DNA of 64,000 nucleotides. Source: a virus. Below are positions 33,870 to 51,623 of the stretch, piece by piece; position 1 is the first letter of the stretch, and each line of letters begins with the position of its first letter. Location of the stretch: positions 79,855 to 143,854 of the IMG/VR virus record IMGVR_UViG_3300042261_000588; one strand, given 5' to 3'. The position numbers and the translations under genes are program-made. The notes below the pieces were generated by a model. It was given only the letters and a program-made list of their open reading frames with translations, ran no database searches and was not told the origin of the DNA.

Positions 33870-34425
33870 TCTGGGCAAAGTTGAAGTTCGGGTCATCAAG
33901 TTTGCCGAAGTAATACCGATGCCGAATAATCCGCGGGTCATTGATGATGTGGCACTGAATGGCCTGAAGGCGTCGCTAGATCGTTTCGGTTATGTTGAGC
34001 CTATCGTCTGGAACAAGAGGACTGGACATATCGTGGGAGGGCATCAGCGATTTAAGGTGCTCAACATGCAGGGATTGATTGAAGCTCAGATGGTTGTCGT
34101 GGATATGAATCCTGACGACGAGATGTCAGCGAATCTGACTTTGAATAATCCAGAGATCGAAGGTGAGTTTTCCGAGAAGGCATTGGAACTCCTAAAGGCT
34201 CTCAAAGGAGAAGAGTCTGATTTGTTTGGAAAACTTAGGATGGACGATTTGATGGGTAATCTTGAAAAGCGTTTCGTTCAAGTAAATGATAAGTCTTACG
34301 AGAATAAGGAGATCGATATACAGGAGTTGGTTTCCGGCTGTAATGACAAGTGTCCTTGTTGTGGGTTTGTATGGACGGCGGATGATAAAGACCAAGTTGA
34401 CTTGGAGACACTAAAAGATGGTTGA
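33862..34425 (+). CDS. ParB/Srx-like domain protein, type B
   Basis: NNPRVID, IVGGHQR, CPCC. Confidence 0.85.
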   Translation: MGDLGKVEVRVIKFAEVIPMPNNPRVIDDVALNGLKASLDRFGYVEPIVWNKRTGHIVGGHQRFKVLNMQGLIEAQMVVVDMNPDDEMSANLTLNNPEIEGEFSEKALELLKALKGEESDLFGKLRMDDLMGNLEKRFVQVNDKSYENKEIDIQELVSGCNDKCPCCGFVWTADDKDQVDLETLKDG

Positions 34426-35488
34426 CGGTCACAGATTCCCTTATTGTTGGAAGAGGACTGATTTAGACCGTGTTCGGAAGCATGGTCACACGGTCTTGTC
34501 TACATTTGCTTGCGGCGGTGGATCGTCATTCGGTTATAAGATGGCAGGATTTGATGTGATCGGATTCAACGAGATTGATAAGGAAATGGTCTCGCTTTAT
34601 CTGGCGAATCATCATCCCAAGTTTACTTTTCATGAGCCGATTCAGACTTTCAAGAATCGGACAGACTTGCCTGATGAATTATTCAATCTGGATATATTGG
34701 ATTCTAGTCCTCCATGCAGTTTGTTTTCCATAGCGGGCGATAGGGAAGAAAACTGGGGAAAGAGTAAGAAGTTTAGAGAAGGACAGGCCGATCAGATATT
34801 GTCGGACTTGTTTTTCGACTATCTCGATCTCGTAGGGAAGCTGAGACCGAAGGTAACTGTCGCAGAGAATGTCAAGGGAATGCTCCTTGGTAAAGCAAAG
34901 GGATATTGTGATCTGATTTTCAAGCGGTATGATAGTCTTGGCTATGACGTTCAGTTGTTCTTAATCAATGCCGCAACACTAGGTGTTCCACAGAGGCGAG
35001 AGAGGGTATTCTTCGTCGCTCGAAGAAGGGACTTGAATCTTCCTAAGTTGGTTTTGAATATTAAGGAAAAGCCGATCACATTCAGGGATTTATCTGGCAA
35101 GCTACCATTTCAGGATTTGAAGGATACGGATGCAAATGATGTGTCGAGGGCATTCTGGCACAAGACAATACCAGGGAAAGGTTTCGAGGATGCATCAGGT
35201 GGAAACTATTTCAATCATAAACGACTTGCATTAGATGAGCCAACTCTGACTTTGACTGCCGGTTGTTGTCTCCAACATCCAACGGAGATGAGGAATATCA
35301 GTTGGATCGAGGCGTGTTTGATTGGATCATATCCTTATGACTATGATTTTCTCGATAAGGGTTGGAAGATGAAGGTGTATTGCATTGGGATGAGTGTCCC
35401 ACCAGTGATGACCGCTCAGATAGCAGCACAGATTGCCGAGCAATGGTTTGGGGTAAAGGCAGAACAGATTGATGAGGCATGGAAGTGA
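34418..35488 (+). CDS. dcm: C5 cytosine DNA methyltransferase
   Basis: FACGGG, SPPC, ENV, QRRERVF. Confidence 0.9.
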   Translation: MVDGHRFPYCWKRTDLDRVRKHGHTVLSTFACGGGSSFGYKMAGFDVIGFNEIDKEMVSLYLANHHPKFTFHEPIQTFKNRTDLPDELFNLDILDSSPPCSLFSIAGDREENWGKSKKFREGQADQILSDLFFDYLDLVGKLRPKVTVAENVKGMLLGKAKGYCDLIFKRYDSLGYDVQLFLINAATLGVPQRRERVFFVARRRDLNLPKLVLNIKEKPITFRDLSGKLPFQDLKDTDANDVSRAFWHKTIPGKGFEDASGGNYFNHKRLALDEPTLTLTAGCCLQHPTEMRNISWIEACLIGSYPYDYDFLDKGWKMKVYCIGMSVPPVMTAQIAAQIAEQWFGVKAEQIDEAWK

Positions 35489-36966
35489 CAGGGAAACATA
35501 GATTTCCTTATTGTTGGAAGAGGACTGATTTGAGTCGTGTGAAGAAACACGGTCACACGGTCTTTTCCACTTTTGCTTGTGGAGGAGGGTCTTCTTTCGG
35601 ATACAAGATGGCTGGTTTTGACTTGATAGGATGCAATGAGATTGATAAGGAGATGATGAATTTCTATCAAGCCAATCATCATCCAAGGTATCCATTCCTG
35701 GAGCCGATACAAACCTTTAAGAGTCGGACTGATCTTCCCGATGAGTTGTTCAATCTGGACGTTTTAGATGGTAGTCCGCCTTGTTTTGTTGCGGGCACTC
35801 TCATATTTACAATTAAGGGAGTCGTTCCGATAGAGATGATTAAGGAAGGGGACATCGTTTTGACCCACCTCGGAAGATGGAGGAAGGTGGTAGCAACGAT
35901 GAGCAGGATGAGTCCTACAGTTTTGGTGGACAATCGTATTGAGGCTACTCCAGATCACAGATTTTATGCGAGAAAGTCTGGGGACGATATTCCAGAATGG
36001 GTTAAGGCAAAGGATTTAGAGGGATTTTATCTTGCATCATATCACGAAAATTATAAAGATATGGGCGGGTGGATATGGAAGAAGCTAACGAGGCCGGTGG
36101 TGCCAGCTTCCGAACTAACAGAAGTATTCGATTTTGAGGTTGAGGAGGACCATAGTTTTGTGGCCGACGGATATGTGGTTCATAATTGCTCAACTTTTTC
36201 AATGGCTGGTGATAGAGAGAAGGGCTGGGGTAAGAATAAAAAGTTTCGAGAAGGACAGGCAGAACAGGTTCTTTCAGACCTGTTTTTCGAGTATCTTGAT
36301 CTCGTAGGGAAGCTGAGACCCAAGATCGCCGTAGCCGAGAATGTTCAGGGGATGTTGACGGGCAAAGCAAAGGGATATTGCAAGCTCATCGTGGATCGTT
36401 TCAACTCAATGGGGTATGACGCCCAATTGTTTCTGCTGAATGCGGCAACGATGGGAGTGCCACAATTCAGGGAAAGGGTGTTCTTTATTGCCAGAAGGAG
36501 AGACTTGAATCTTCCGGCATTGAATATGGCATTCAATGAGCCAATCATACCATTTAAAGAGGTTGTGGAGGCATTGCCGTTTCAGGACTTGTCTGGGATA
36601 GCCCCAAATCAGGTTGATAGGGCTTATTGGCACAGGACTAGACCCGGCGATACATATTCCACCGTGTCAGGAGGAAGCTATTTTAGTTGGTGCCGATTGA
36701 GTATGGATAGAGTTAGTCCAACCGTGCTTGCCACGGAGAACATGAAGTATCCAACAGAGATGAGGAATTTAAGTTGGGTAGAGATATGTTTGATTGGGTC
36801 ATATCCGTATGATTATGATTTTCTTGGTGTTACGAGGAATAAGAGAGTATACTGTGTGGGTATGAGTGTTCCACCAGTAATGATGGCACAGATCGCTGCG
36901 AAGATTGCAGAGCAGTGTTTTGGAGTGGATGCAGATAAAATTGATGAGGCTTGGAGAAAAAAATGA
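35479..36966 (+). CDS. dcm: C5 cytosine DNA methyltransferase with mini-intein
   Basis: paralog of previous gene; SPP|intein|CSTFS, ENV, RERVF. Confidence 0.9.
   Translation: MEVTGKHRFPYCWKRTDLSRVKKHGHTVFSTFACGGGSSFGYKMAGFDLIGCNEIDKEMMNFYQANHHPRYPFLEPIQTFKSRTDLPDELFNLDVLDGSPPCFVAGTLIFTIKGVVPIEMIKEGDIVLTHLGRWRKVVATMSRMSPTVLVDNRIEATPDHRFYARKSGDDIPEWVKAKDLEGFYLASYHENYKDMGGWIWKKLTRPVVPASELTEVFDFEVEEDHSFVADGYVVHNCSTFSMAGDREKGWGKNKKFREGQAEQVLSDLFFEYLDLVGKLRPKIAVAENVQGMLTGKAKGYCKLIVDRFNSMGYDAQLFLLNAATMGVPQFRERVFFIARRRDLNLPALNMAFNEPIIPFKEVVEALPFQDLSGIAPNQVDRAYWHRTRPGDTYSTVSGGSYFSWCRLSMDRVSPTVLATENMKYPTEMRNLSWVEICLIGSYPYDYDFLGVTRNKRVYCVGMSVPPVMMAQIAAKIAEQCFGVDADKIDEAWRKK
35782..36186 (+). mobile_element. 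mini-intein (135 aa) inserted immediately before the catalytic Cys
   Basis: CFVAGT start, TPDH, VVHN|C end; no endonuclease. Confidence 0.9.
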
Positions 36967-38966: not shown

Positions 38967-39206
38967 ATGGCAAATTTAAAAATATGTAGGAAGTGCAGTA
39001 ATGGACTGGAGTTCTATCCTGCACTTCTTGATCATACTGATAAAAAAGTGTGCGGGACGCAGGTCTGGTGCATATTATCGGCTATATATATCGAATGGGA
39101 TTCCGAGGTGCCAGAAAAATGCCCGTATCGGATGGAACATATTGTGTCTCAGGATGCCATTTCCGATCTTGCAGATGAATCAATAGAGATGAAGGAGTCA
39201 AAATGA
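38967..39206 (+). CDS. small Cys-containing protein
   Basis: ORF in operon, overlaps iscS start. Confidence 0.55.
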   Translation: MANLKICRKCSNGLEFYPALLDHTDKKVCGTQVWCILSAIYIEWDSEVPEKCPYRMEHIVSQDAISDLADESIEMKESK

Positions 39207-40381
39207 AGCCGAATTTTCAATTACAAGATATTGAAGTCTATATGGATAATGCGGCGACAACAGCCATAGATGAAGAGGTTGTTTCAGCTATGAGACCATA
39301 CTTAGAGGAGCGGTATGGCAATCCTGAGACTGTATATCGTCTTGGAAGGGAGTCGAGGAAAGCCGTCGAGGACTCTCGTGCGACTATCGCAGATATTCTG
39401 AAATGCACCCCAGAGGAGATATTCTTCACTTCTGGCGGCACCGAGGCGAATAACTGGGCTATCAAGGGCATTCGTCTTCAGGGATATGGAGGAATTATAG
39501 TCGGAGCCATCGAACATGCGTCTGTCTTAGAGCCTGCCAGCAGTGTTTTTGGAAAAGCAGATAAGAGAGCACTTTTTGAGATTCCGGTCGACTCATTCGG
39601 TCTTGTCGACTTGAATGCGCTTGAAACACACCTTCAAATGCCACAAGGGAAGCAGTGGCTCGTCTCCATTCAGTATGCCAATAACGAGATTGGGACAGTG
39701 CAGCCGGTTGAAAAGATCGCCGAGCTGTGCAAGAAGTATGGGGCAGTCTTCCATTGTGACGCAGTTCAGGCATTCGGGAAGATCGATTTCGACGTGGACG
39801 ATGTGGGTGCGGACATGATTTCATTATCGGCACACAAGATTCACGGTCCGATGGGTATGGGCGCTCTCTACGTCAAGAAGGGCACCCTTCTTGAGCCTCT
39901 GTTACATGGGGGTGGACAGGAGAGGGGGATGAGGTCTGGAACGCTGGCAGTGCCAGAGATAGTGGGGTTTGCGAAGGCTGCGGAGCTGGCTATGGAAGTA
40001 CTTCCAAAACAGATGCCGAGATTGATGCGTATTTCAGAGTGGTTGGCTGAGCAGTTGAGGCTTTCTAGTGACGGGAGACGTAACGGTCATACGACACAAC
40101 GGCTTCCCAATATCGTGAGCATAACCTTTCCGGGAATAGAATCCGAGGTCGTCTGCGGGATCATGTGCTCGAAATACAAGTCATGTCTGTCGGCTGGATC
40201 GGCTTGCTCGACGACGAAGAGGCGTTCTCATGTCCTGGAAGCCATAGGGCGGGACCATCGTGATGTTCTGTCGACGCTGAGGATCAGTTTGAGTCGGTAT
40301 AACTCGGATAGTGATGTGATGGTTGCCATGGGTCATATCCAAACAGCAATTAAACAATCGAAGGCAAGAGAGCTGATTTGA
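39203..40381 (+). CDS. iscS: cysteine desulfurase (IscS/NifS)
   Basis: YMDNAATT, FTSGGTEAN, HCDAVQ, SAHKIHGP, SAGSAC. Confidence 0.93.
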   Translation: MKPNFQLQDIEVYMDNAATTAIDEEVVSAMRPYLEERYGNPETVYRLGRESRKAVEDSRATIADILKCTPEEIFFTSGGTEANNWAIKGIRLQGYGGIIVGAIEHASVLEPASSVFGKADKRALFEIPVDSFGLVDLNALETHLQMPQGKQWLVSIQYANNEIGTVQPVEKIAELCKKYGAVFHCDAVQAFGKIDFDVDDVGADMISLSAHKIHGPMGMGALYVKKGTLLEPLLHGGGQERGMRSGTLAVPEIVGFAKAAELAMEVLPKQMPRLMRISEWLAEQLRLSSDGRRNGHTTQRLPNIVSITFPGIESEVVCGIMCSKYKSCLSAGSACSTTKRRSHVLEAIGRDHRDVLSTLRISLSRYNSDSDVMVAMGHIQTAIKQSKARELI

Positions 40382-40484
40382 AAAAGGTATCTAAGAAAGA
40401 AAAGCCTGTCGATATCAAGGAAGTGAATGTCGATGTTGGCGAACGTGATGATGTAGTGGTGGTGTCTTTCAATAAGGTGGTGTC

Positions 40485-41060
40485 ATGGATAGGATTGGAA
40501 CCAGTGCAGGCGATAAAGCTGGCGGAGAGCCTCAAAGCGTCAGCGGTGGGGATACTGAGAAGCACTCCGAAGTCTCAGAAAGACTGATCTATCAGCGTGT
40601 GATCTGTGGAATATTCCTATTCTTGATCTGCATATCCTCAGTCATCGGTTTTGCAGCATCGAAGTTGTCTTGGTATTTTGCGATACCGTTTGGGATATTC
40701 GGTGGGTTGATCGGCATGTTCTTGGGGATAGGAATAGAATGGATACGCTTAAGTATTGAAATCACGGATGTCAAAAAGGAACTCATCTTAGAAAGGATGA
40801 TGAATGATGCCAAGTGTCGTAAGCAGACACGTAAAGCCGTTGATGATGCAAGGCATGAGTATGTTAGTTTGGCTATCGAGTCAGCTAGGGTATTGGCAAA
40901 CCGAGTGGCGAACAGGATCATCGCAAGACATGCCAGCCGGCTCCTCGAAGCTGAATATAGAGAGGCAACGATACAGGATACTGACGAGATTGTTGAGGAT
41001 GAATTGAAGTCGTTGAAGCAGTCAATTCGGGACGAGTTTGATGCTGAAAAAAATATTTGA
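40485..41060 (+). CDS. membrane protein, two TM helices (start uncertain)
   Basis: hydrophobic segments then coiled coil. Confidence 0.5.
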   Translation: MDRIGTSAGDKAGGEPQSVSGGDTEKHSEVSERLIYQRVICGIFLFLICISSVIGFAASKLSWYFAIPFGIFGGLIGMFLGIGIEWIRLSIEITDVKKELILERMMNDAKCRKQTRKAVDDARHEYVSLAIESARVLANRVANRIIARHASRLLEAEYREATIQDTDEIVEDELKSLKQSIRDEFDAEKNI

Positions 41061-41069
41061 AGATTTTTG

Positions 41070-41099
41070 TTGCAATGTTTCAGGCAGATGGAGTATAGT
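41070..41099 (+). promoter_or_regulatory. sigma70-like promoter of tRNA region
   Basis: TTGCAA-N18-TATAGT. Confidence 0.6.
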
Positions 41100-41141
41100 A
41101 TCTCTGTGCGGTAGAAAAGGCCGTAAGGAGTGGATGAGAAA

Positions 41142-41249
41142 ATGAGACTGATACATACAGGTAAAGAGCAGAAGCCGATGGCAGGAGCGATTGAAGATCG
41201 CCCAGCCACGTGGTTTTCACTCTTTTCTGTCTTGTTCAATCAGGATTAA
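41142..41249 (+). CDS. putative attenuator leader peptide (35 aa)
   Basis: AAGGAG RBS; MRLIHTGKEQKPMAGAIEDRPATWFSLFSVLFNQD. Confidence 0.6.
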   Translation: MRLIHTGKEQKPMAGAIEDRPATWFSLFSVLFNQD

Positions 41250-41282
41250 AGCAAGAAGAAGACAAGACAGAAAAGAGTGAAG

Positions 41283-41311
41283 ACCGCAGCCGAAAGGCAG
41301 GCGGTTTTTTT
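41283..41311 (+). terminator. intrinsic terminator overlapping an antiterminator helix
   Basis: ACCGC-A-GCC-GAAA-GGC-AG-GCGGT then T run. Confidence 0.75.
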
Positions 41312-41319
41312 ATTTTCCT

Positions 41320-41344
41320 TATTTTACTGATGAGTCGGTAATGT
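41320..41344 (+). promoter_or_regulatory. TATT-N13-GGTAATGT motif
   Basis: 1 of 7 copies. Confidence 0.55.
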
Positions 41345-41633
41345 GGGGTATGTCGGGACGAGAACGACGAGCGATCATTGACAACTGAATATCGAAATGC
41401 GAAACAGCCACCCGGCTGTAGGCAGGTTGGAGCCATTTTGCGGACGAAGCCCTTCGGGGTTCGACGTTCGATGTGAGTGGATGACTGTAGCCGAAATGCG
41501 GGTGGTTGTCTTCGCTCCATACTGCCTTGGTTCTCGACTAGGGGCCGAATTTGATGTTCGGCGAACCCGCAGAGGGGGCGTAGTGTAGACTCAGCACTCG
41601 GTTGGGATTGCGAGGGTAGTACAGAGCGGAGAT

Positions 41634-41709
41634 GTCCCTATCTGCTAACTGGTGAGGCAATCAGATTCTCAATCTGATAATCCGGGTTCGAGTCCCGGTG
41701 GGGATGCCA
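41634..41709 (+). tRNA. tRNA-Glu(CTC)
   Basis: cloverleaf, TCAGA-ttCTCaa-TCTGA, CCA. Confidence 0.9.
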
Positions 41710-41797
41710 ATATAAGTATGGAGATGTGGGGCGAAGTCGGCAGCAGCGAAGCGGGTTTGGGCGTCTCATAAGAGTGATTGGAGACGATCCACCAAGA

Positions 41798-42008
41798 AGA
41801 AGTAGGATTTATGATCATGGGAATACGACTCGAAAAGTCGCCGGACGGATAGGTGAATGTACAGCACCACAGTAAGTCTGGACTACCCATGATCGGATGG
41901 AGACACCTGCCAGATCAATGAAGTGTGAAAGCCGAGGGGCGGCCCGAACGGATAGTTCATGCAGAGATCAAGTGGTGTGGCTACCGGGGAGAAGCACCCG
42001 GCCTATTT
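41798..42008 (+). ncRNA. structured ncRNA candidate
   Basis: terminal AAGTAGG/CCTATTT, GATCATGGG/CCCATGATC, CCGGG/CCCGG stems; no ORF. Confidence 0.45.
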
Positions 42009-42024
42009 ATGAAATGACGGTGAT

Positions 42025-42100
42025 GCGAGTGTAGCTCAGTTGGTAGAGTAACTGACTCTTAATCAGTGGGTCGTCGGTTCAAATCCGTCCACTCGTACCA
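42025..42100 (+). tRNA. tRNA-Lys(CTT)
   Basis: cloverleaf, CCA. Confidence 0.93.
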
Positions 42101-42184
42101 GTTTACGGGCCTGAGTCTAGTGACAGTCCAGATGAATCATCCAGATGACCGGAGAACTTACCTCCGGCGGGTCCATCAGTTTTT

Positions 42185-42355
42185 GAACAGCGGCGTGGAA
42201 AGCATAGCCCCTCGAAAGGTTATTAGAGACACGCTAGGTCAAGCAGGTCATGTGGCCGAAAGCTCCACACTGCCATAGTAGAGATGATGGCGAACGGTAG
42301 TAAGATGCTCGTACTCAGAGAGGTGGAGATAGCCGGGGTAGCGTCCGGCCTGTTC
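42185..42355 (+). ncRNA. tRNA-scaffold ncRNA family member A
   Basis: GAACAG/CTGTTC closing stem, GCGTG-GAAAG..AGA-CACGC, GCCGG-GGTAGCGT-CCGGC. Confidence 0.6.
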
Positions 42356-42678
42356 GATTCAGCTTGCAAGAGGTGAGCCGAGACCGTAGGCATACGGTAA
42401 TCATTTACAAAAACCCTGATGAGTTGATGGCCTTCGGCCTGATGAGTTGATGGGTGTAAATGTTTGGCTGAGACCTACCGAGGATAGACGATACGTGGTG
42501 TATAGAGCACGCCCGAAGGGAGGATCAGGTTCGAGTCCTGAACGTTGGAACAATTTCTTGCTGCAAGGCAACAGTGAAATCCCTCATAACTTTTCAATTT
42601 CGTACTTGCGAGTCAGGCCACGATTCAATGCAGTGATGTACGACTGCGATAGTGGATAAACCAGACCGCCCAATTTTT

Positions 42679-42860
42679 AGGAGCAAGCAGCACGGGAGGC
42701 AGACGTGCCGACGAATGCCGCAGTAGAGCAAAGTCGGGTGGACGAACATTGTCGAACCGGGAGCAGTAATGCAACCCGTGGATGTCCAAGGTAAAGCCCT
42801 TAGCGGGGTTGGAAGTAGGATGAACAGTCCGCTGATCGGGGTGGCGTCCGATCTGCTCCT
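42679..42860 (+). ncRNA. tRNA-scaffold ncRNA family member B
   Basis: AGGAGCA/TGCTCCT, GCACG..AGA-CGTGC, GATCGG-GGTGGCGT-CCGATC. Confidence 0.55.
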
Positions 42861-42868
42861 TTTTTTAT

Positions 42869-42946
42869 GTTGGCCGTAGCTCAATTTGGCAGAGCGTCTG
42901 ATTGTGGGTCAGAATGTTGCGAGTTCAAACCTCGTCGGTCAACCCA
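42869..42946 (+). tRNA. tRNA-His(GTG)
   Basis: G-1:C73, GTG anticodon, CCA. Confidence 0.88.
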
Positions 42947-42955
42947 TAAGGAAAG

Positions 42956-43027
42956 CATGGCACACTTCAGCGTGATGGCTACTTCTACTTCTATGAAAAA
43001 AGCCTTTGTGCAATCATCGGTGCCATG
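42956..43027 (+). ncRNA. Y-RNA-like RNA 1 (short, no tRNA module)
   Basis: CATGGCAC-ACTTCAG...TACTTC...GGTGCCATG. Confidence 0.6.
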
Positions 43028-43043
43028 TGATCCTTGCCATTCT

Positions 43044-43152
43044 GAAGGCACACCTCAGTTGAGGGATACTTCGTTTGTTCGATTCAAACCCTCGGCAGAT
43101 GCCGGGGATGCCCTGTTGGTGGGCGTTTCTCTCAGCGATTATTGGTGCCTTT
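43044..43152 (+). ncRNA. Y-RNA-like (YrlA-like) RNA 2 with permuted tRNA module
   Basis: T-arm, closed acceptor stem, D-arm order inside shared terminal stem. Confidence 0.65.
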
Positions 43153-43164
43153 GATTTCACTTTT

Positions 43165-43307
43165 TCAGGTCACACTTCAGGGTAGGGATACTTCATTCCA
43201 ACCGCTAATCGAGGTTCGATTCCTCGTCTCTCGACCATAACATCGGGAGATCGTCTAATGGCTAGGACAGCGGCACAAGACACCTTGCTCGCTTATTGGT
43301 GATCTGA
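43165..43307 (+). ncRNA. Y-RNA-like (YrlA-like) RNA 3 with permuted tRNA module
   Basis: CGAGG-TTCGATT-CCTCG, TCTCTCGA/TCGGGAGA, GTCT-AATGGCT-AGGAC. Confidence 0.7.
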
Positions 43308-43312
43308 TTTTC

Positions 43313-43389
43313 GGGCTCATAGCTCAGTTGGTTAGAGCACGGGACTCATAATCCCTTGGTCGCAGGTTCGAGTCTTGCTGAGCCCACCA
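43313..43389 (+). tRNA. tRNA-Ile2/Met(CAT)
   Basis: CAT anticodon, GGGCTCA acceptor suggests Ile2. Confidence 0.88.
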
Positions 43390-43395
43390 TCTTAT

Positions 43396-43471
43396 AGGCA
43401 TGTAACTCAGTTGGTAGAGTGCAACTCTGATACGGTTGATGTACCTGGTTCAATTCCAGGCATGCCTACCA
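43396..43471 (+). tRNA. tRNA-Ile(GAT)
   Basis: cloverleaf, CCA. Confidence 0.88.
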
Positions 43472-43531
43472 TGAATTCAAAAAGAAAGGACGGTGATTGC
43501 AATGAAATGCGATGGTAAACGAGTGTAAAGA

Positions 43532-43606
43532 GGATGCGTAGCTCAGAGGTAGAGCAGTTGGCTTTTAACCAACGGGTCGAGATTTCAAAATTCTCCGCAT
43601 CCACCA
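43532..43606 (+). tRNA. tRNA-Lys(TTT)
   Basis: cloverleaf, CCA. Confidence 0.88.
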
Positions 43607-43620
43607 AAATAGATTTTCTG

Positions 43621-43760
43621 TGAGGCACACTTCAGCGAAGAGTTACTTCAATGTTAATGACGTGGTTGTTGGTTCAACTCCAACCTCCGGAGTCGCAAGA
43701 TTCCGGAGTAGCTCAATGGTAGAGCACGAAAATCTCTCTTCGCGTTTTTTTGGTGCCTCA
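43621..43760 (+). ncRNA. Y-RNA-like (YrlA-like) RNA 4 with permuted tRNA module
   Basis: TGAGGCAC/GTGCCTCA, TACTTC, GTTGG-TTCAACT-CCAAC, CTCCGGAGTC-GCAA-GATTCCGGAG, GCTC-AATGGTA-GAGC. Confidence 0.7.
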
Positions 43761-43897
43761 CGGACCTATTTCATTCTATTCTACGACAGGTTTACCGGAA
43801 TTGCCTGTCGTAGTCTGCATACCCGGTTCAGCACCGGCTACCCGGAGGATGTGCCGCCAAGAAGCCAGTTTCCCGGAGTTCTGACAAACCGGGATTT

Positions 43898-43972
43898 GCC
43901 CCCGTCGTCTAGTGGCTAGGACGCTGGTTTTTCAAGCCGGAGAAGGCGGATCGATACCGCTCGGGGGTGCCA
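43898..43972 (+). tRNA. tRNA-Glu(TTC)
   Basis: cloverleaf, CCA. Confidence 0.88.
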
Positions 43973-43996
43973 ACTTCCAATGGAATGGTGTATAAT

Positions 43997-44073
43997 GTGC
44001 CTATAGCTCAATTGGACAGAGCACTTGACTACGGACGAGAAGGCGGCTGGTTCAAATCCAGTCAGGAGCACCA
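43997..44073 (+). tRNA. tRNA-Arg(ACG), degenerate stems
   Basis: D and T arms clear; acceptor and anticodon stems imperfect. Confidence 0.6.
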
Positions 44074-44212
44074 AGAAAGATTTTTTAATTTGGGGGGGTA
44101 AAGGGTTGGATGGATGCACGCCGCCCGAGCGGTCTGTCCAGTCTGCGTAAAGCAATCTGTCCGGTGCAGCGCCTCGTGGGCGTAGGATGGAAAAGTTGCT
44201 CCCTCCTTTTTT

Positions 44213-44287
44213 GGAGATGTGGCAGACCGGTAATGCGCCTGATTGTCTATCAGGTTTATGCGAGTTCAATTCTCGTCATCTTCGCCA
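44213..44287 (+). tRNA. tRNA-Asp(GTC)
   Basis: CCTGA-ttGTCta-TCAGG, CCA. Confidence 0.82.
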
Positions 44288-44394
44288 ACGCTTGTTCGGG
44301 ATCAGGAGAAGCAGAAACCGCCTCTGTTCGTTAGGAGGGTAATCCCCCGATGCCAACTTGGATGTGTTCCATGGCAAGCATCTATTTCAGTTAT

Positions 44395-44480
44395 GCCGAG
44401 TTGGCTCAGCGGCGACAGCAACGGCTTCGTAAGTCGTCATGGTAACTACATCGGGGGTTCGAGTCCCTCACTCGGCTCCA
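44395..44480 (+). tRNA. tRNA-Thr(CGT) with long variable arm
   Basis: GCC acceptor start, U73, CGT anticodon. Confidence 0.82.
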
Positions 44481-44612
44481 TGAAATATTTTTTCACATTT
44501 TACTGTGGGTCGAGTATAATATCTTGATCGGTATAGCAGCGAGCCAAAGTGGCTCCGATTAAGACGGTCATAGTTGGCCGTTGAATCGCTGAGGTAATTA
44601 GGAGAAGTTCAA

Positions 44613-45119
44613 ATGATTAGACGTGCAGTTGTGACGGTGTTGGCTGTTATGGGGCTGTGTCTTGCCGGATGCAAGATGTCGCCGAGTGAGATCAATGCGA
44701 TGTCAGAAGCCTCTGGCGTAGCGGCAACGGTGATCTGGATGTCCTATGACAATCCATCAGTCGAGCAGAAAACTGAAGTCGCCAATGTTCTTGGCGTCGT
44801 AACGGAGAACATCGGAATTGTCGGGACAAATTCGTATACTTCCGTGTTCATGCCGAAGGTTATGGCGTATGTTGTTGCCAGTCAGGATATTCCGGCCAAT
44901 GACAAGCCCATTGTCATCGCTGGGTCGCTGGCAGTTTTCGGAGGTATTGACCTGTTGTTTGCAAGTCATCCTGAATGGAAGGAAGACACGCAGAATGTCG
45001 GGTCGTATGTCAAGTCATTCATTACTGGCGTACAGCTCTCTCTGGCTTTGCCGGCAACGGACTCGAAGGTTATGAAGGCAACCGAGAATTACAAGGCACG
45101 CTCAGCACTCAAGAAGTAA
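44613..45119 (+). CDS. lipoprotein
   Basis: signal peptide + LAGC lipobox. Confidence 0.75.
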   Translation: MIRRAVVTVLAVMGLCLAGCKMSPSEINAMSEASGVAATVIWMSYDNPSVEQKTEVANVLGVVTENIGIVGTNSYTSVFMPKVMAYVVASQDIPANDKPIVIAGSLAVFGGIDLLFASHPEWKEDTQNVGSYVKSFITGVQLSLALPATDSKVMKATENYKARSALKK

Positions 45120-45184
45120 GATAAGTATCAGCGTGGTTCTTGAAGGGGCGTTTCGATGAAGAGTCGGACGCCTCTTGTATTTAT

Positions 45185-45271
45185 GCCAACGTGACCTGAA
45201 TTGGTAAAGGCCCTGATTTGTAATCAGGTAGTTCCGAAAGGATCGTGCAGGTTCGATGCCTGTCGTTGGCT
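45185..45271 (+). tRNA. tRNA-Thr(TGT) with long variable arm, no encoded CCA
   Basis: CCTGA-ttTGTaa-TCAGG; TCC-GAAA-GGA variable arm. Confidence 0.8.
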
Positions 45272-45509
45272 CGGGAAGCAAAGTTGGGGCACCTCTACGT
45301 GGTGCTGACTAGAAACAGCAGGAGTGCTGGCTAAGACCCCAATCGAAGGTTGATGATGGTAAGGAACCTCATAGCCTTTTATTCTTTGAAATAGGTGAAT
45401 GTCGAGACATCAATGAGGCAGAGTTCGATGCTTTGTTCAAGACAGGCTTGTGCTTTGCGGTTGTCATTATTCTGAATGGATGCTAATTTTGCAGGGAGGA
45501 ACAAGAAGT

Positions 45510-45585
45510 AGGCGTGTGGTCCAATTGGTCGGGCACCGGTCTCCAAAACCGGACTATGTGGGTTCGAGTCCCGCCACACCTGCCA
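45510..45585 (+). tRNA. tRNA-Trp(CCA)
   Basis: cloverleaf, CCA. Confidence 0.92.
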
Positions 45586-46033
45586 AAACCAGAGAGGTGG
45601 ATTCGACTTCCGCTCACCATGCCAATCTGATCCGCAAAAAAATCTGAAGAAAAATCTACAATTTTTGTTTGACTTATCCCGTTGATTTGGTGTAATATGG
45701 ACTGGAATGATGAGTCATGGAAGAGTTGTAAAATGATCAGAACTTCAAATCACTGGAAGTTGGTTGTCGGCTAGAGCGCTTTCAGCTTGCGGAAAACAAG
45801 TCAGGAGTCTATAGTTCCTGATGTTCAAAAGTCTCATAGAATAAAAATCTATGAAAAGGCAACTGAGTAGAAATTTTTGGATTTATAGGTCAGTGGCAGA
45901 GGGAAAATGCACGGGTATGCCCGGTCTCAGGGTTCGGTTAGTGGGCGAGCTGATCTCTGAGTGAAAGATACCAATCTTTCCTGACCTATTAATCTTGTTG
46001 TGAAAACATTGTCTTGCCGGAGTATAATGAGAC

Positions 46034-46372
46034 ATGAATACTAAAAAAGGCAACGGGATTGAAGAACTCTGGAAACAAACGAAGAAGAAAATTCGTATGG
46101 ATCAGGTTCACACAGAAATTGATCACAAGGTTCTTGCCGCTGGTGATCTCTGTCAGGTCGTCCTTTACAATGACGATCATCATACAAGCTCTCATGTGGT
46201 AAAGTCTTTGATTGCGATTTTTCAACATTCACAGGCAATAGCTGAGAAGATCATGCTCGATGCTCATAATTCTGGACGGTCGGTTGCCGAGGTTGAGGAT
46301 TATGAGAAGGCAGTTGAACATGCCAAGCAATTAGCTGAGGCTGGTTTGAAAGCAGAAGTAGAGTCGTTTTAA
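46034..46372 (+). CDS. clpS: ClpS N-degron adaptor
   Basis: VVLYNDDHHT..VV..L...IMLDAHNSG. Confidence 0.85.
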   Translation: MNTKKGNGIEELWKQTKKKIRMDQVHTEIDHKVLAAGDLCQVVLYNDDHHTSSHVVKSLIAIFQHSQAIAEKIMLDAHNSGRSVAEVEDYEKAVEHAKQLAEAGLKAEVESF

Positions 46373-46513
46373 GCAAAACTGTAACAAGCCAAAGATAAAG
46401 TGCGACAACGCTGATAACTGCGCAGGCAAACAAGAAAAGTAGGAGAAGTAATGGAAGCACACTAGTTGGCGAAGTTGTTATTGGACAATTAATCTCGAAT
46501 GAAGAGTAATTTT

Positions 46514-46589
46514 GGGGCTATAGCACAATTGGTAATGCGGCAGCTTTGCAAGCTGTTCGGTACGAGTTCAAGTCTCGTTAGCTCCACCA
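46514..46589 (+). tRNA. tRNA-Ala(TGC)
   Basis: GGGGCTA acceptor with G3:U70, CCA. Confidence 0.92.
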
Positions 46590-46629
46590 AAAATTCGGGA
46601 GTGTTGGACCTTGTTGCGTCCGACTACCC

Positions 46630-46911
46630 ATGAACACAACAACCGCCAGCGGGCGGAAAGGAGCGCCTATGCGCATGTCCTCACGAAAAGGCCAGACGAT
46701 GGTCGAGTACATCATCATTGTCGTCGTGATTGCCATCACCCTGATCTTGCTCTTCTCCAATTTGGGCAAGGCCATTGGCAAGAAGGTCACCGGCGCGACA
46801 GCCGCCATAGACCAAGAGGTCGGTGAGGCGGCGGCGGCGACGTATGACACCCTGAGCGCCAATCCGGTTCGGGATTTAAATGCAGACGGGACGATGGTTG
46901 GCACGCCCTAA
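46630..46911 (+). CDS. Flp/Tad type IV pilin-like protein
   Basis: RKG|QTMVEY followed by hydrophobic helix. Confidence 0.8.
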   Translation: MNTTTASGRKGAPMRMSSRKGQTMVEYIIIVVVIAITLILLFSNLGKAIGKKVTGATAAIDQEVGEAAAATYDTLSANPVRDLNADGTMVGTP

Positions 46912-47077
46912 GCGGGAACGGGCACCATGGCAAGGGTGGCGATCAGGGCTCGTGATGCGCGTCGCCTCCGGTGCAGTAGTGGGCATTACACAAATTTGTT
47001 AGGCTTACAGAGAAGATATGGCGCGTAGCCGCGCCGATGTTCACCGCCGACGATAATCATCAAAAAGGAGAAGAAGT

Positions 47078-47491
47078 ATGAAGATTGGGTTTATGTCTTT
47101 GTTTTTCGTGTTTGTTGCAGGATGTGCCACTGGACCCTACACGCCGATTCGGACATCGAGTTTGAAGGGAGAAAAAGTCATTTATTTCGAGCAGGTAGAT
47201 CGGGTCCCGAAAGACGTATTGATGCTCTTGTGTGAGAAAAAGGATGACGGCACTATGAGTGCGAGAGTCATGCCTTGGATTGAACTTATCCCGATGATCG
47301 AGAAGCTGTCGGATGTCGCCCCAGAGATCGTCACTTCGTATAGCCAAGAGAGAATGGAAAACGCCATGATCACAAGGAGAATGCTGTTTCGTGGATATGA
47401 TGGCACGAATGACTTGGTGGAGATCGAGAGGATCATAAAGACGATGGGTGGAAACATCGAGAATTGGTCTGCGAAGAAGGACAAGCCGTGA
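47078..47491 (+). CDS. lipoprotein
   Basis: VAGC lipobox, AGGAG RBS. Confidence 0.7.
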   Translation: MKIGFMSLFFVFVAGCATGPYTPIRTSSLKGEKVIYFEQVDRVPKDVLMLLCEKKDDGTMSARVMPWIELIPMIEKLSDVAPEIVTSYSQERMENAMITRRMLFRGYDGTNDLVEIERIIKTMGGNIENWSAKKDKP

Positions 47492-47646
47492 GAAAGCCTA
47501 GACTGACAGAGGACATCGCTCGTGGCATTATGGGTTGGATGAGCTTCGGCAGATATTGCTGCTGACTCTGATCGTCTTGCGGTAGATATGGAAGTTATCA
47601 CAGAAGTTTGAACGCAACCCAGTGTCGTGGAGTGAAAAGTAATTTT

Positions 47647-47722
47647 GGCGGGTTAGCTCAGTTGGTAGAGCAATGGAATCATAATCCGTGCGTCGGGGGT
47701 TCGAACCCCTCATCCGCCACCA
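47647..47722 (+). tRNA. tRNA-Met(CAT) elongator
   Basis: cloverleaf, CCA. Confidence 0.92.
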
Positions 47723-47735
47723 TGTTTAATTATGA

Positions 47736-47813
47736 CGGTAAGTAGTTCAGTCTGCTTAGAACGCTCGGTTTGGGTCCGAGAGGCCGTGGGTTGAAATCCC
47801 ACCTTACCGACCA
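47736..47813 (+). tRNA. tRNA-Pro(TGG)
   Basis: cloverleaf, CCA. Confidence 0.88.
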
Positions 47814-47982
47814 CCGGCTCCAGAGGAGGTTCGGCAGGGAAGGACAAACAAGAAACGGAAGGAGATTGGGACAACATGGAAGCAATGATCGTCGTTGGGC
47901 CGGAGAAGAGACAAATGAAAAGGGACGGAGCCATGGACCTTGCGCGCGGAACCTTACAAACACCAACACCAAGGAGAAGAAG

Positions 47983-48540
47983 ATGAGTGATCTGAAGTTC
48001 AACTGTCCGCACTGCCAACAGTCCCTCGAAGCGCCCGAAGAACTCCTTGGCCAGACGATCAACTGCCCGTCATGTAATGGCCGCATTCAATTGCCAAGTC
48101 CACAGCCCCGGCAACCGGCCAAGCCATTGCCACCACCACAGAAGAAGGTCGTTCTCAACAAACCGCAAACGGCACCACCGCCACAAACCGGCCGGACAAA
48201 GCCCTGCCCGTTCTGCGGCGAACAGATCCTAGAAGTAGCGAAGAAATGCAAACACTGCGGCAGCACTGCCAGCCAAAGCAAGAAGCGCCTTCTTCCTGCC
48301 TTCTTGCTGTGCTTTTTCTTTGGCGTACTCGGTATCCATGCCTTCTACGTCGGCAAGGTCAGTCAAGGCATCGTCTTTCTGGTCCTCTTTTTTGGGGCAT
48401 TTGCCCTCGACGCCGCAAACAGTATGTTGAGTGAGTTGCCGGTACTACTGCTCTTCGTCTGCTTGTTCGGAGACCTCTTCCGCCTCGCGGTGGGAGCGTA
48501 CAAAGACACTGATGGAAACAAGATAACTCAGTGGATTTGA
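47983..48540 (+). CDS. zinc-ribbon + TM2 domain membrane protein
   Basis: CPHC..CPSC, CPFC..CKHC, LLCFFFGVLGIHAFYVGK. Confidence 0.85.
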   Translation: MSDLKFNCPHCQQSLEAPEELLGQTINCPSCNGRIQLPSPQPRQPAKPLPPPQKKVVLNKPQTAPPPQTGRTKPCPFCGEQILEVAKKCKHCGSTASQSKKRLLPAFLLCFFFGVLGIHAFYVGKVSQGIVFLVLFFGAFALDAANSMLSELPVLLLFVCLFGDLFRLAVGAYKDTDGNKITQWI

Positions 48541-48610
48541 GTGCATCGAGGCCAGATCAGAGCCGAACCAGCGCCTCCATTTTACGTCGCTTAGCGCCGA
48601 AGGGCTTCAA

Positions 48611-48940
48611 ATGATTGAGATCAAGAACGTCAAGACCTATAAGGGTGATGGATTCAGAGTTGATCGGTCTTCTCCTTTAGGAAACCCGTTCTTGGTTGAT
48701 GCCAAGACATCCCGGACGATGGCTATAGCACAATACCGGGAATGGCTCTTGAAGCGTCTGGAGACATACAATCCCACTTCCAAAGCTTTCATGGTGCTTG
48801 TCGAGTATTATCGTCGAGAGGGAAATATGACTTTGATTTGTCATTGCGCTCCGCTTCAATGTCACGCAGAGATCATAAGAGAGTTTGTCTTAGAGGCAGT
48901 TGATGTAATGGGAGATAAAAAAGTTGAAATCACGAGTTGA
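48611..48940 (+). CDS. DUF4326-like protein
   Basis: VDRSSPLGNPF...CHCAPLQCHAE. Confidence 0.8.
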   Translation: MIEIKNVKTYKGDGFRVDRSSPLGNPFLVDAKTSRTMAIAQYREWLLKRLETYNPTSKAFMVLVEYYRREGNMTLICHCAPLQCHAEIIREFVLEAVDVMGDKKVEITS

Positions 48941-49274
48941 CAAATTTGCCGCCAAGATGCGTAAGAACAAGTCGTGGCCTGAGAAGAAGCTTTGGGCTAA
49001 GATCAAGAACGATCAGCTAGGTGTTCGGTTCTATGCTCAGAAGGTCATTCTGGGTCACTACATCGCAGATTTCTATTGCCCAAAGGCTAATTTGGTCATC
49101 GAGACTGATGGCAAGCAGCATCTTAAGAAGGCGGCTCAGGAGCACGACAGGGAGCGTGATGAGGCGATGGCTAAAATAGGGATCAAGACAGTGAGGTTCA
49201 CGGCGCAGGAGGTTGCCAACAATCTTCCGGCTGTTGTCGTCATGATACAGAAGATCGTTCAAGAAAGAATCTGA
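48924..49274 (+). CDS. DUF559/Vsr-like endonuclease
   Basis: EKKLW..Q..YIADFYC..IETDG..H..D..RD. Confidence 0.85.
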   Translation: MKSRVDKFAAKMRKNKSWPEKKLWAKIKNDQLGVRFYAQKVILGHYIADFYCPKANLVIETDGKQHLKKAAQEHDRERDEAMAKIGIKTVRFTAQEVANNLPAVVVMIQKIVQERI

Positions 49275-49283
49275 TTCATTCCT

Positions 49284-49309
49284 TATTTGGGCAGGATTTT
49301 GGTAATGTA
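49284..49309 (+). promoter_or_regulatory. TATT-N13-GGTAATGTA motif
   Basis: repeated motif in an intergenic gap. Confidence 0.65.
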
Positions 49310-49363
49310 TGGGTGTAAGGGCGATACAAAACACAAAGCTGACTGGCGGCTTGCCAGCCAAGG

Positions 49364-49597
49364 ATGATTGACATGAAGAAGAACGCAACCGTGGAAGCCG
49401 TACAGCCCGACTTGTTGGAGTGCCCGTTCTGCGGGCCAGTCGAGATCGTTCACCGGTGGGCTGGCAACGTCGAGATCAAGCACAAGCCTGCGTGCTTTCT
49501 GCACGCGATCACTACACTGCACGGAGCGGCGCACATCGCGGCGTGGAATCGACGATACTCCAACGCCCGGCTTGATCGACAGGAGGAAGTACGATGA
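49364..49597 (+). CDS. Lar-like zinc-ribbon small protein
   Basis: LECPFCG...IAAWNRR. Confidence 0.55.
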   Translation: MIDMKKNATVEAVQPDLLECPFCGPVEIVHRWAGNVEIKHKPACFLHAITTLHGAAHIAAWNRRYSNARLDRQEEVR

Positions 49598-49710
49598 GTG
49601 GATGCAAAGAACACCCGGATGGACAGCGTGGTTGTATGTATTGCGCAGAGGTTGGGTTACTTGAGCGAATTGCCGAGCACCCCCCTGTACGGTCGGAGCC
49701 GTTGTTGTCG
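49558..49710 (+). mobile_element. attC-like site (long)
   Basis: CCAAC...GTTG ends, imperfect inverted repeat with bulged bases. Confidence 0.5.
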
Positions 49711-50116
49711 AACGATCCCGTTCAACAGCCGGGGATCGGACCGCAAGGAGACCGTATGACTGAGACAAACACAACGCGGGCTGCCGGTAGTTCTGCACAG
49801 GCTTGTTGGCCGGATGAGCGTGCCGAGGAATTGAAGGTCTTGCAACAACTGCTGGCGACCATCTCAGGGTTGAATCACGGTAGCGGCTTCGTCGAATCGC
49901 TCCAATGGTGCATCGCGGCTGCAAAATGTCTGCAGCACAGCGACATCGCAGGGTTGAGGTCGAGTTTCATCGACCACCTATTGCGCGACTGCGTTGCGGA
50001 GCGTACGGCCAAACAGCCCGCATAGCTGCGGCTAAAAGAACCTGAAGGCGGACAAGGTTTTGAATGCGTTGAGCGACGAGTGCCTTGCTCAGAGGATGAA
50101 TGGAGTGTAGGTCAAA

Positions 50117-50386
50117 ATGAGTAATAACGTCAAGAGGGTTATCACAGTTGTCAAGGAATCCGACCACAATGGTCGATTTGCTCTGAATGAGTGTCTGGTG
50201 ACAGAAGGGAGCATCTCGCGGACGGCTTACTGGTCTGACGGGACTCTGAAGGTGGAGCAGATGCAGGACAAGCTGATTGCTGAGGGTGCTAATCCAGCCA
50301 CTGTTGAGGAGTTTCGACAAGTCGTCTATGACTATGGTTACGAGAATGGAATGGAAGTGGTTGAGGAGGCTGTGGCGTTGGGATGA
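50117..50386 (+). CDS. hypothetical protein
   Basis: ORF with GGAG RBS. Confidence 0.6.
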   Translation: MSNNVKRVITVVKESDHNGRFALNECLVTEGSISRTAYWSDGTLKVEQMQDKLIAEGANPATVEEFRQVVYDYGYENGMEVVEEAVALG

Positions 50387-50392
50387 CATAAA

Positions 50393-50468
50393 GCACCAAT
50401 AGCTCAGTTGGTAGAGCGGGACCTTCCCAAGGTTCAGGTCGTCGGTTCAAACCCGATTTGGTGCTCCA
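50393..50468 (+). tRNA. tRNA-Gly(CCC)
   Basis: cloverleaf, U73, CCA. Confidence 0.88.
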
Positions 50469-50495
50469 ATAGTTGATGAAAAGAGGAGACAAGCG

Positions 50496-50729
50496 GTGAA
50501 AGTGATTGGATCAACGTGGTTCTCTGAGATGGGCAGCGCAACTCCGATTGGAATCGTTCTAGTCGAGTTTGACAAGGCAGAGCAGCAAGATTTTGGTGCG
50601 TTTGCCCTGGCGGCATATATTGGAACGTCTGCAGGTCTCTCAAAGGAGATGGACGAGGAAAGAATCGTGAAGAATGGTGCGAGGTTTCCTGTTTCTGCTG
50701 CCAAGATGATGATCGGGCGAGGAGTATGA
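50496..50729 (+). CDS. hypothetical protein
   Basis: GAGGAG RBS. Confidence 0.55.
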   Translation: MKVIGSTWFSEMGSATPIGIVLVEFDKAEQQDFGAFALAAYIGTSAGLSKEMDEERIVKNGARFPVSAAKMMIGRGV

Positions 50730-50977
50730 AAAATCGTGGAGTTCGCAGGGATCATGAAAAACGGATTAAGGCCAGAGTCAAGAAGGTCTTAATTTCCAAG
50801 AAGAATTTTTGCAAGTCTGCTTGTGAACCTTCCGAAGCGCCTACGAAGAAGGTGATTGGTCGGCTGGCGGCTGTTCACGGCGCTGCTTGTTCTTGCCAAA
50901 TGTGCGGAAATCCTCGAAGATATGCCAAGGGAAAAGGAAAGATCACGATGCAGGAGCGGAGGTTGAAAGCGATTTGA
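50726..50977 (+). CDS. small basic protein with CSCxMCGNPR motif
   Basis: motif recurrent in phage small proteins. Confidence 0.6.
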   Translation: MKNRGVRRDHEKRIKARVKKVLISKKNFCKSACEPSEAPTKKVIGRLAAVHGAACSCQMCGNPRRYAKGKGKITMQERRLKAI

Positions 50978-51075
50978 CTTACGACATCTACAACCCTGAC
51001 ACCATGTGATTCTGTTTCGGAATGTCGTGAATGACGCCGTTGTAGTCGGTTCAGAAAGGGTATAATGATTTAAGT

Positions 51076-51149
51076 GCGGGTGTAACTCAATGGTAGAGTG
51101 TCAGCCTTCCAAGCTGATTACGAGGGTTCGATTCCCTTCACCCGCTCCA
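51076..51149 (+). tRNA. tRNA-Gly(TCC)
   Basis: cloverleaf, CCA. Confidence 0.93.
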
Positions 51150-51165
51150 ATGATTAATGTGATTT

Positions 51166-51242
51166 GGCCCTATGGCGCAATTGGACAGCGCAGCGGTTTC
51201 CTAAACCGACGGTTGGGGGTTCGATTCCCTCTAGGGCCGCCA
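51166..51242 (+). tRNA. tRNA-Arg(CCT)
   Basis: cloverleaf, CCA. Confidence 0.92.
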
Positions 51243-51252
51243 ACGAAGATAT

Positions 51253-51329
51253 ACCCCCGTAGCTCAGATGTATAGAGCGGAAAATTTCTAATTTTCGGGT
51301 CGCAGGTTAGAGTCCTGCCGGGGGTACCA
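51253..51329 (+). tRNA. tRNA-Arg(TCT)
   Basis: cloverleaf, CCA. Confidence 0.88.
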
Positions 51330-51340
51330 AGATGTTTGAT

Positions 51341-51415
51341 GAGTCTATGGTGTAATGGATAGCACCTTACCCTACGAAGGTAATAGTCTGGGTTCAACTC
51401 CCGGTAGACTCACCA
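51341..51415 (+). tRNA. tRNA-Arg(ACG)
   Basis: cloverleaf, CCA. Confidence 0.9.
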
Positions 51416-51428
51416 GTTTGTAGGAGAT

Positions 51429-51502
51429 TGGCTCGTGGTGTAATTGGCAGCACGTCACGCTCCAGTGAAGGATTGCAGGTTCGATTCCTGCCGAGTCAAC
51501 CA
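51429..51502 (+). tRNA. tRNA-like gene with aberrant anticodon arm (identity undetermined)
   Basis: good acceptor, D and T arms, CCA; TCAC-GCTCCA-GTGA 6-nt loop. Confidence 0.65.
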
Positions 51503-51617: not shown

Positions 51618-51623
51618 GGAGAA

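Follow-up and report, generated by a model that had tools for sequence, protein, structure and literature searches.

A putative leader-peptide attenuator in front of the tRNA array of an uncultured phage and its relatives

Introduction

The trpL, hisL, thrL and ilvGMEDA leaders are multivalent leader-peptide attenuators of enterobacterial amino-acid operons. The leader of Bacillus subtilis vmlR (PMC9226507) and toiL, found upstream of topAI in Escherichia coli (PMC12121999), are attenuators in which a short upstream ORF (uORF) serves to sense translation stress, and toiL has been shown to respond to ribosome stalls at several positions (PMC12121999). In Salmonella, mgtP and mgtM are leader ORFs of the mgtCBR operon (PMC3641672).

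No leader-peptide attenuator described for tRNA genes was found in our literature searches. To our knowledge, the regulation of phage tRNA genes is barely known. The presence of these genes in phages has been explained by codon compensation and, lately, by escape from host tRNA-cleaving defences (PMC10264068, PMC11464382). Here we describe a cassette located in front of a phage tRNA array that is probably a ribosome-dependent (leader-peptide) transcription attenuator matched to the tRNA set of that array.

Results and Discussion

Source of the DNA and related lineages

The stretch of DNA analysed, referred to as the window, consists of the right-hand 64 kb of the 143.9-kb IMG/VR virus record IMGVR_UViG_3300042261_000588, whose estimated completeness is 67%. 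All genes are on the + strand and the GC skew is strong. Two features of the window are referred to in the comparison with other phages:

39203-40381, class-V aminotransferase / cysteine-desulfurase-like (NifS-like) gene (Pfam Aminotran_5, E 5e-74)
41634-51617, + strand, tRNA array (22 ARAGORN calls, interspersed with ORFs and non-coding RNA)

No cultured relative was found in the phage collection, where the matches were at the tRNA level only. The aminotransferase led to a contig, L003, with 65% protein identity, the same gene order and a homologous mini-ORF. A degenerate DNA pattern of the conserved core of the encoded peptide yielded five metagenome contigs, and a profile search of 1.8 billion representative proteins yielded four further homologous peptides of 34-37 amino acids, encoded by contigs with the same neighbourhood, one of them 318 kb long. 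Scans of viral contigs with the 191-amino acid neighbour, the helix arm and the first peptide pattern gave no new relatives. The pattern K-P-x-A-G-A-I-E occurred at 49 places in viral contigs, all of which, with the exception of the known relative, were discarded as chance occurrences lacking extended similarity.

The cassette is common to seven lineages of related uncultured phages. Each of them includes a promoter with the geometry of P1 (see below), Shine-Dalgarno-like purines, an ATG, a frame of 35-38 codons (stop included), an arm B rich in purines, a GC-rich hairpin that runs into a U tract, and then a GGTAATGT-like motif. The stretch that begins with the ATG and closes with the U tract measures 166-178 nt across the seven lineages, and in all of them the stop codon is found 25-34 nt 5′ of the terminator arm, in or beside the apical loop of the helix described below. 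Downstream tRNA genes are present in five of the seven, that is, in every lineage with a flank long enough to include them. A separate case is L060 (1079-1250), with the same leader ORF as L061 and L062, followed on its 3′ side by a long GA-rich repeat with no recognisable terminator; it is either a natural variant in which the switch was lost or an assembly artefact.

The tRNA array and neighbouring genes

The first gene of the array is tRNA-Glu(CUC), which starts at 41634, and syntenic arrays are found in the related lineages. Both tRNA-Thr genes of the window (44395-44480 and 45185-45272) are 86-88 nt long according to ARAGORN, a length that implies a long variable region, which is unusual for Thr. 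In L003, L010 and L072 the Thr(UGU) gene is likewise 86-87 nt. The array of L072, the 318-kb contig, includes a tRNA with a CUA (amber-reading) anticodon (12194-12267), and L003 has, at 8503-8573 and just ahead of tRNA-Glu, a tRNA-like gene for which a four-base anticodon (cgca) is called. Two sub-threshold Rfam matches lie inside the array of the window, one to YrlA (Y-RNA-like; 43635-43746, 33.6 bits vs 69) and one to an HDV-like ribozyme (45273-45343, 29.4 bits vs 44); these weak matches fit tRNA-like non-coding RNAs in the array.

The aminotransferase gene keeps its place in all lineages, two genes upstream of the leader with its tRNA array, and a role of its product as sulfur donor for tRNA thiolation (s2U34 of Lys, Glu and Gln tRNAs) is possible. 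Phages of this group also have several DNA methyltransferase genes on the 5′ side of the tRNA region, and the relatives carry in addition multiple ParB-N-like genes and a patatin-like gene (22198-24714 and 34418-36966 in the window, 451-6255 in L072).

Organization of the leader region

The region between the upstream operon and the terminator that precedes the array has the following elements:

41070-41099, + strand, P1, sigma70-like promoter (TTGCAA, 18-nt spacer, TATAGT; 9/12 matches), predicted start near 41106
41107-41125, + strand, small 5′ hairpin of the leader transcript predicted in MFE folds
41125-41130, + strand, Shine-Dalgarno-like AAGGAG, 11 nt 5′ of the ATG
41142-41249, + strand, leader ORF, 35 sense codons and TAA (41247-41249)
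41184-41203, + strand, hairpin P, candidate RNA polymerase pause hairpin inside the ORF, predicted at the same place in every lineage
41210-41236, + strand, arm A of the antiterminator helix, the 3′ part of the ORF (codons 23-32)
41261-41287, + strand, arm B, the last five nucleotides of which (41283-41287) double as the terminator 5′ arm
41283-41316, + strand, intrinsic terminator (ACCGC/GCGGU outer stem, GCC-GAAA-GGC inner hairpin, T7-A-T4 tract)

Most of this anatomy had been proposed in the initial annotation, namely a sigma70-like promoter, a 35-codon ORF using 18 different amino acids with no Cys or Tyr, a helix of about 25 bp sequestering the ACCGC strand of an adjoining terminator, and a tRNA array downstream. 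All of these elements are present at the positions given there. The helix comprises 27 bp by folding (41210-41236 with 41261-41287), and within it nucleotides 41283-41287 pair with 41210-41214.

Sites of the P1 type are found 19 times in the region, against 14.5 expected, so P1 taken alone is not significant, but its hexamers and their spacing are kept in all seven lineages. The small 5′ hairpin is found at the equivalent place in the predicted folds of L003 and L007. In the other lineages the conserved ATG is preceded, at 3-13 nt, by purine-rich runs that resemble a Shine-Dalgarno sequence.

The leader ORF has a coding signature

The leader frame is the only one open in all seven lineages, and every insertion or deletion found in it is a multiple of three. 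The minimum numbers of changes at the first, second and third codon positions are 23, 33 and 50 over the whole ORF (chi-square about 11, 2 degrees of freedom) and 13, 20 and 35 upstream of arm A. At one Pro codon all four third bases are seen across the lineages. The peptide shows a pattern of conserved blocks, W-H-T, K-E-Q-K-P and D-R-P-A, and in the latter two the amino acids are conserved despite synonymous codon changes. The Trp at codon 5 is kept by the other lineages and is absent from that of the window. No Pfam family matches the peptide.

The C-terminal third of the peptide is variable in length and sequence, as expected if the pairing of arm A constrains it. In the segment that forms hairpin P the amino acids change while the base pairs are kept (CGGUC/GACCG in L069, CGU/ACG in L065), and thus part of what appears as peptide conservation is RNA constraint. 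Taken together, the comparison of the lineages suggests translation of the leader ORF, parts of which are in addition constrained by the structure of the RNA.

Predicted competition of the terminator and the ORF for the same arm

The window includes an inverted repeat of 24 nt with 96% complementarity (41212-41235 and 41262-41285), and the fold of the leader has a z-score of −8.9, with none of 200 shuffled sequences folding as well. In the terminator, ACCGC (41283-41287) pairs with GCGGU (41301-41305) in a hairpin of −11.9 kcal/mol, whose internal loop causes a simple terminator scanner to miss it. A GC-rich hairpin (−11.9 to −17.9 kcal/mol) followed by a U tract is found in the same place in all lineages, although the stem sequences differ.

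For each lineage we folded the RNA as it stands ahead of the synthesis of the terminator 3′ arm. Without exception, the terminator 5′ arm was then paired with codons 22-28 of the ORF. The sequences that form this antiterminator vary, the stem being GUGGU:ACCGC in the window and CGGGG:CCCCG in L008, and the helix being GGGGCCUUC (9 bp) in L061, 11 bp long in L069 and 13 bp in L007. In L003 and L007 the pairing between the ORF and the terminator arm is a separate helix of 8-13 bp set off by an internal loop. Single pairing columns show U-A, C-G and A-U alternatives across the lineages.

The RNAalifold consensus obtained on a plain MAFFT alignment is the antiterminator, with compensatory changes in 9 of 18 pairs. 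Since purine-rich arm B is out of register by up to 3 columns in this alignment, counting of alignment pairs was replaced by a reading of the pairs from the individual folds of the lineages, with the well-aligned arm A as anchor, and by a permutation test. Cognate duplexes between ORF and terminator arm averaged about −18.5 kcal/mol, compared to −14.2 kcal/mol for permuted ones (p 0.0008-0.0075, all 5,040 permutations). The helix that sequesters the terminator 5′ arm is conserved with compensatory changes in the seven lineages.

In no lineage do the terminator and antiterminator states differ by more than about 5.5 kcal/mol. In the window the antiterminator is the more stable by 5.5 kcal/mol; L007 shows no difference between the states, and in L003 and L008 the terminator state is ahead by about 5 kcal/mol. 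For these last three lineages read-through upon lack of translation would consequently depend on kinetics; near-equal energies of the two states are typical of kinetically controlled attenuators.

Leader codons sample the anticodons of the array

The array has 19 distinct readable anticodons serving 13 amino acids. All 13 are present among the first 24 residues of the leader peptide, and 23 of these 24 residues belong to that set, the outsider being Leu. Each of these two properties alone is found in about 0.2% of the 24-residue segments of the phage's own ORFs, and both jointly in none of 32,740. At the codon level, the first 24 codons sample 17 of the 19 array anticodons, while the maximum among the same 32,740 segments was 15; the statistics of this match were chosen post hoc, after the data were seen. 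These codons cover both members of the isoacceptor pairs Lys UUU/CUU, Glu UUC/CUC and Thr UGU/CGU, and two of the array's three Arg tRNAs. On the other hand, the codons of arm A specify Phe, Ser, Leu and Val, none of which is served by the array, and a stall at these codons would favour termination.

The correspondence is imperfect. Codons CTG, GGT and GCC are unserved, anticodons Gly-CCC and Arg-CCT are unsampled, and codons 21-24 lie in the zone where a stall should favour termination. Mirroring of lineage-specific tRNAs by lineage-specific leader codons was looked for across the lineages and was not found: L073 encodes a tRNA-Ile(UAU), yet AUA is absent from its leader, and L072 and L073 have a Gly-GCC tRNA but no GGY codon.

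Direction of control

The effect of a ribosome was modelled by masking a footprint of 30 nt, codon by codon, in an equilibrium folding model. For the window, the probability of the terminator was near 0 in the ribosome-free RNA and also when the P site occupied codons 1-18. It rose to about 0.9 for codons 20-31 and fell back to 0 for the last five, at which the footprint hides no more than the loop and the lower helix re-forms. The scan was less crisp for L003, L007 and L008. When the ribosome is at the stop codon the top of the helix is covered, and on steric and kinetic grounds the local terminator hairpin should win the race.

A partner that would sequester arm A when there is no translation was not found in ribosome-free folds, where arm A pairs only with arm B and hairpin P is self-contained. 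The leader thus departs from the four-element trp-type design, with its anti-antiterminator (1:2 pairing), and as a consequence of the missing anti-antiterminator the predicted default without translation is read-through. The other parts of a leader-peptide attenuator can be recognised: a short ORF in the 5′ leader, judged from sequence evidence, an intrinsic terminator between this ORF and the tRNA genes, an antiterminator that is exclusive with the terminator and has one strand that a ribosome can cover, and codons that report the relevant supply (17/19 anticodons and 13/13 amino acids), the latter as an imperfect match tested post hoc.

According to the initial annotation, stalling at almost any codon, or no translation at all, would allow read-through, and the leader would act as a general sensor of translation capacity. 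The masking model agrees with the direction of this effect but restricts it to approximately codons 1-19, and the agreement of these codons with the anticodon set of the array points to an array-matched sensor instead of a general one.

The mechanism that we propose is as follows. Transcripts that begin at P1, or that come from the upstream operon, would carry the 35-codon ORF. Once arm B exits the polymerase it would pair with arm A, the terminator 5′ arm would be sequestered, and read-through into the array would be the default. A ribosome on arm A, or at the stop codon in the apical loop, would keep the helix from nucleating, so that the local terminator hairpin could form and transcription would end at 41306-41316. 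A ribosome delayed in codons 1 to about 19 would leave arm A free and permit read-through. The likely signal would be slow decoding of exactly those codons served by the phage's own tRNAs, and the output would be a negative feedback on tRNA supply.

A more specific version of this proposal, which we offer tentatively, is that the leader senses tRNA supply in the manner of a roster: like a test strip, it would list nearly all anticodons of the array, as part of an autoregulated circuit for counter-defence and homeostasis. Loss or shortage of any listed host tRNA, whether due to anticodon nucleases, codon-usage mismatch or host shut-off, would delay the ribosome before arm A and turn on transcription of the replacement tRNAs; when fast decoding is restored the array would be switched off.

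A second promoter-like motif and the spacer

The terminator is followed by another potential input to the array. The features of this region, and the other copies of the motif in the record, are:

41317-41345, + strand, P2, repeated phage-type promoter-like motif (TTATTCTGAC-like half, 9 nt, GGTAATGT)
41346-41633, + strand, spacer between P2 and the first tRNA, about 290 nt, partly conserved, non-coding
49275-49310, 52322-52357, 53168-53203, 59015-59050, 59860-59895 and 61686-61721, + strand, further copies of the motif in the window
848 and 68957-73468 (record positions), + strand, six copies of the motif to the left of the window

The sequence GGTAATGT has 9 copies on the + strand of the window, compared to 1.3 expected. 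The record has 13 copies of the full motif, composed of the TTATTCTGAC consensus, 9 nt and the downstream half, all of them on the + strand and most of them preceding genes. The consensus of the repeated intergenic + strand motif is TTATTCTGAC, 9 nt, GGTAATGTA, often with TGG next. In the copy at 41317-41345 the upstream half is weaker, but a version of P2 is located directly 3′ of the terminator in all lineages. Judging from these sequences, the motif probably represents a class of phage-specific promoters that differs from the sigma70-like P1, and the array probably has two inputs, P1, which is host-type and gated by the leader, and P2. The latter may drive the array regardless of the leader. 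Sole control of the array by a motif at 41320 had been named beforehand as an observation that would speak against the attenuator; the motif is a real repeated promoter-like element, and it would be unsafe to take the leader as the array's single control.

The spacer shares with L003 and other relatives blocks such as TTGACAACTGAAT, CTTCGCTCC.TACTGCC and GTAGTGTAG, its length differing among them, and it is probably a structured RNA; no Rfam family matches nucleotides 41346-41633. Two other candidates in this region were rejected. A TTGACA at 41379 has no −10 partner and is more likely part of the conserved RNA than a promoter, and a hammerhead ribozyme suggested by CUGAUGAG at 41328-41335 has no Rfam match and its motif is not kept in the relatives.

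Other explanations for the cassette

The leader ORF could be a stand-alone small-protein gene, in which case the terminator would be constitutive and insulate the upstream operon, the array would be transcribed from P2 only, and the helix would stabilise the mRNA or tune translation, its overlap with the terminator being non-regulatory. The peptide is in fact conserved beyond what simple codon sensing needs, a feature that the attenuator leaves unexplained, and both the repeated P2 motif immediately 3′ of the terminator in all lineages and the three lineages in which the terminator state is at least as stable as its alternative agree with such a gene. Against it, covariation specifically links the terminator 5′ arm to a segment of the ORF, and the separate 8-13-bp helix of L003 and L007 is not a chance extension of a hairpin. 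In addition, the C-terminal third varies as an RNA-constrained region would, the match between the leader and the array codons would be left unexplained, and the peptide belongs to no Pfam family. We consider this explanation unlikely. The conserved blocks of the peptide could also be accommodated by keeping the attenuator architecture and changing the signal, from tRNA supply to a programmed arrest of the nascent peptide in the exit tunnel, possibly with participation of a small molecule or factor. Known arrest peptides such as SecM and TnaC often end in Arg/Pro-containing motifs, and these ends, together with the conservation of the K-E-Q-K-P and D-R-P-A amino acids through synonymous changes, are in favour of an arrest. 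By eye, however, neither a RAGP or RAPP motif nor the spacing of TnaC could be recognised, the Trp at codon 5 that is kept elsewhere is absent from the lineage of the window, the conservation in hairpin P is in part that of the RNA, and the sampling of anticodons would have no explanation. An arrest peptide is thus quite improbable.

Two further explanations concern the RNA itself. The long duplex might be chiefly a processing site for RNase III that separates the leader or upstream mRNA from the tRNA precursor or sets the stability of the latter, and the near-perfect helix of the window, with its 27 bp, is long enough for this enzyme. In the other lineages, however, the helix is broken by internal loops and bulges and what stays is the pairing with the terminator arm; neither the coding signature nor the position of the stop codon in the loop would be explained. 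We believe that processing is very unlikely to be the main function of the duplex, although it could coexist with attenuation. An untranslated RNA, be it riboswitch-like or a T-box-like tRNA sensor, with an incidental ORF would agree with the strong conservation of the RNA structures. This is hardly credible in view of the single open frame with its in-frame insertions and deletions, the third-position bias and the conserved ATG preceded by Shine-Dalgarno-like runs, and because no Rfam family, T-box included, was found at threshold.

Comparison with known systems

If the attenuator and its match to the array are real, some phages measure the decoding of the codons that they can rescue and make tRNAs on demand, attenuation extends from amino-acid and synthetase genes to tRNA genes, and a cassette of about 250 nt constitutes a compact sensor of tRNA supply. 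Comparison with Rfam did not assign the cassette to a described family. No T-box was matched at E values up to 1 in nucleotides 40000-53000, and no leader family reached its gathering score, the best being Phe_leader (31.3 bits vs 55, E 0.063), a sub-threshold match that reflects shape only. Matches of the microRNA type on the helix were dismissed, as they merely reflect a long hairpin.

As it is the case for trpL, hisL, thrL and ilvGMEDA, the phage leader combines a short ORF, which in those leaders is translated, with an intrinsic terminator and an antiterminator that shares the terminator 5′ arm; in both cases the regulatory codons would report particular charged tRNAs and a hairpin in the leader could act as a pause. 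The two are unrelated in sequence, and the genes regulated by the phage leader would be phage tRNA genes instead of those for biosynthetic enzymes. While the enterobacterial leaders repeat one or two codons, that of the phage samples about 17 anticodons once or twice each. It also has three pairing elements instead of four, with the consequence that lack of translation is expected to lead to read-through and not to super-attenuation.

There is also a functional likeness to the leaders of vmlR and topAI, where a ribosome stalled on a short uORF re-folds the leader RNA and transcription continues. [quoted passage not shown] Both are antibiotic-responsive and control resistance or toxin genes, and their codons are unmatched to the downstream products. 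The mgtP and mgtM leader is alike in that the last codons of the ORF form the left arm of a stem-loop, so that translation past a given codon selects the structure (PMC3641672). Moreover, the Pro codons of mgtP report one charged tRNA (PMC3641672), and a choice of codons that reports supply is common to this leader and that of the phage. The mgtCBR leader differs in having no intrinsic terminator, in sensing a single amino acid, in the direction of the effect and in regulating a host gene (PMC3641672). Finally, the phage leader resembles the T-box riboswitches in that the status of tRNA would be linked to terminator read-through via an antiterminator. T-boxes, however, are untranslated and bind uncharged tRNA directly, whereas the phage leader includes an ORF with a coding signature.
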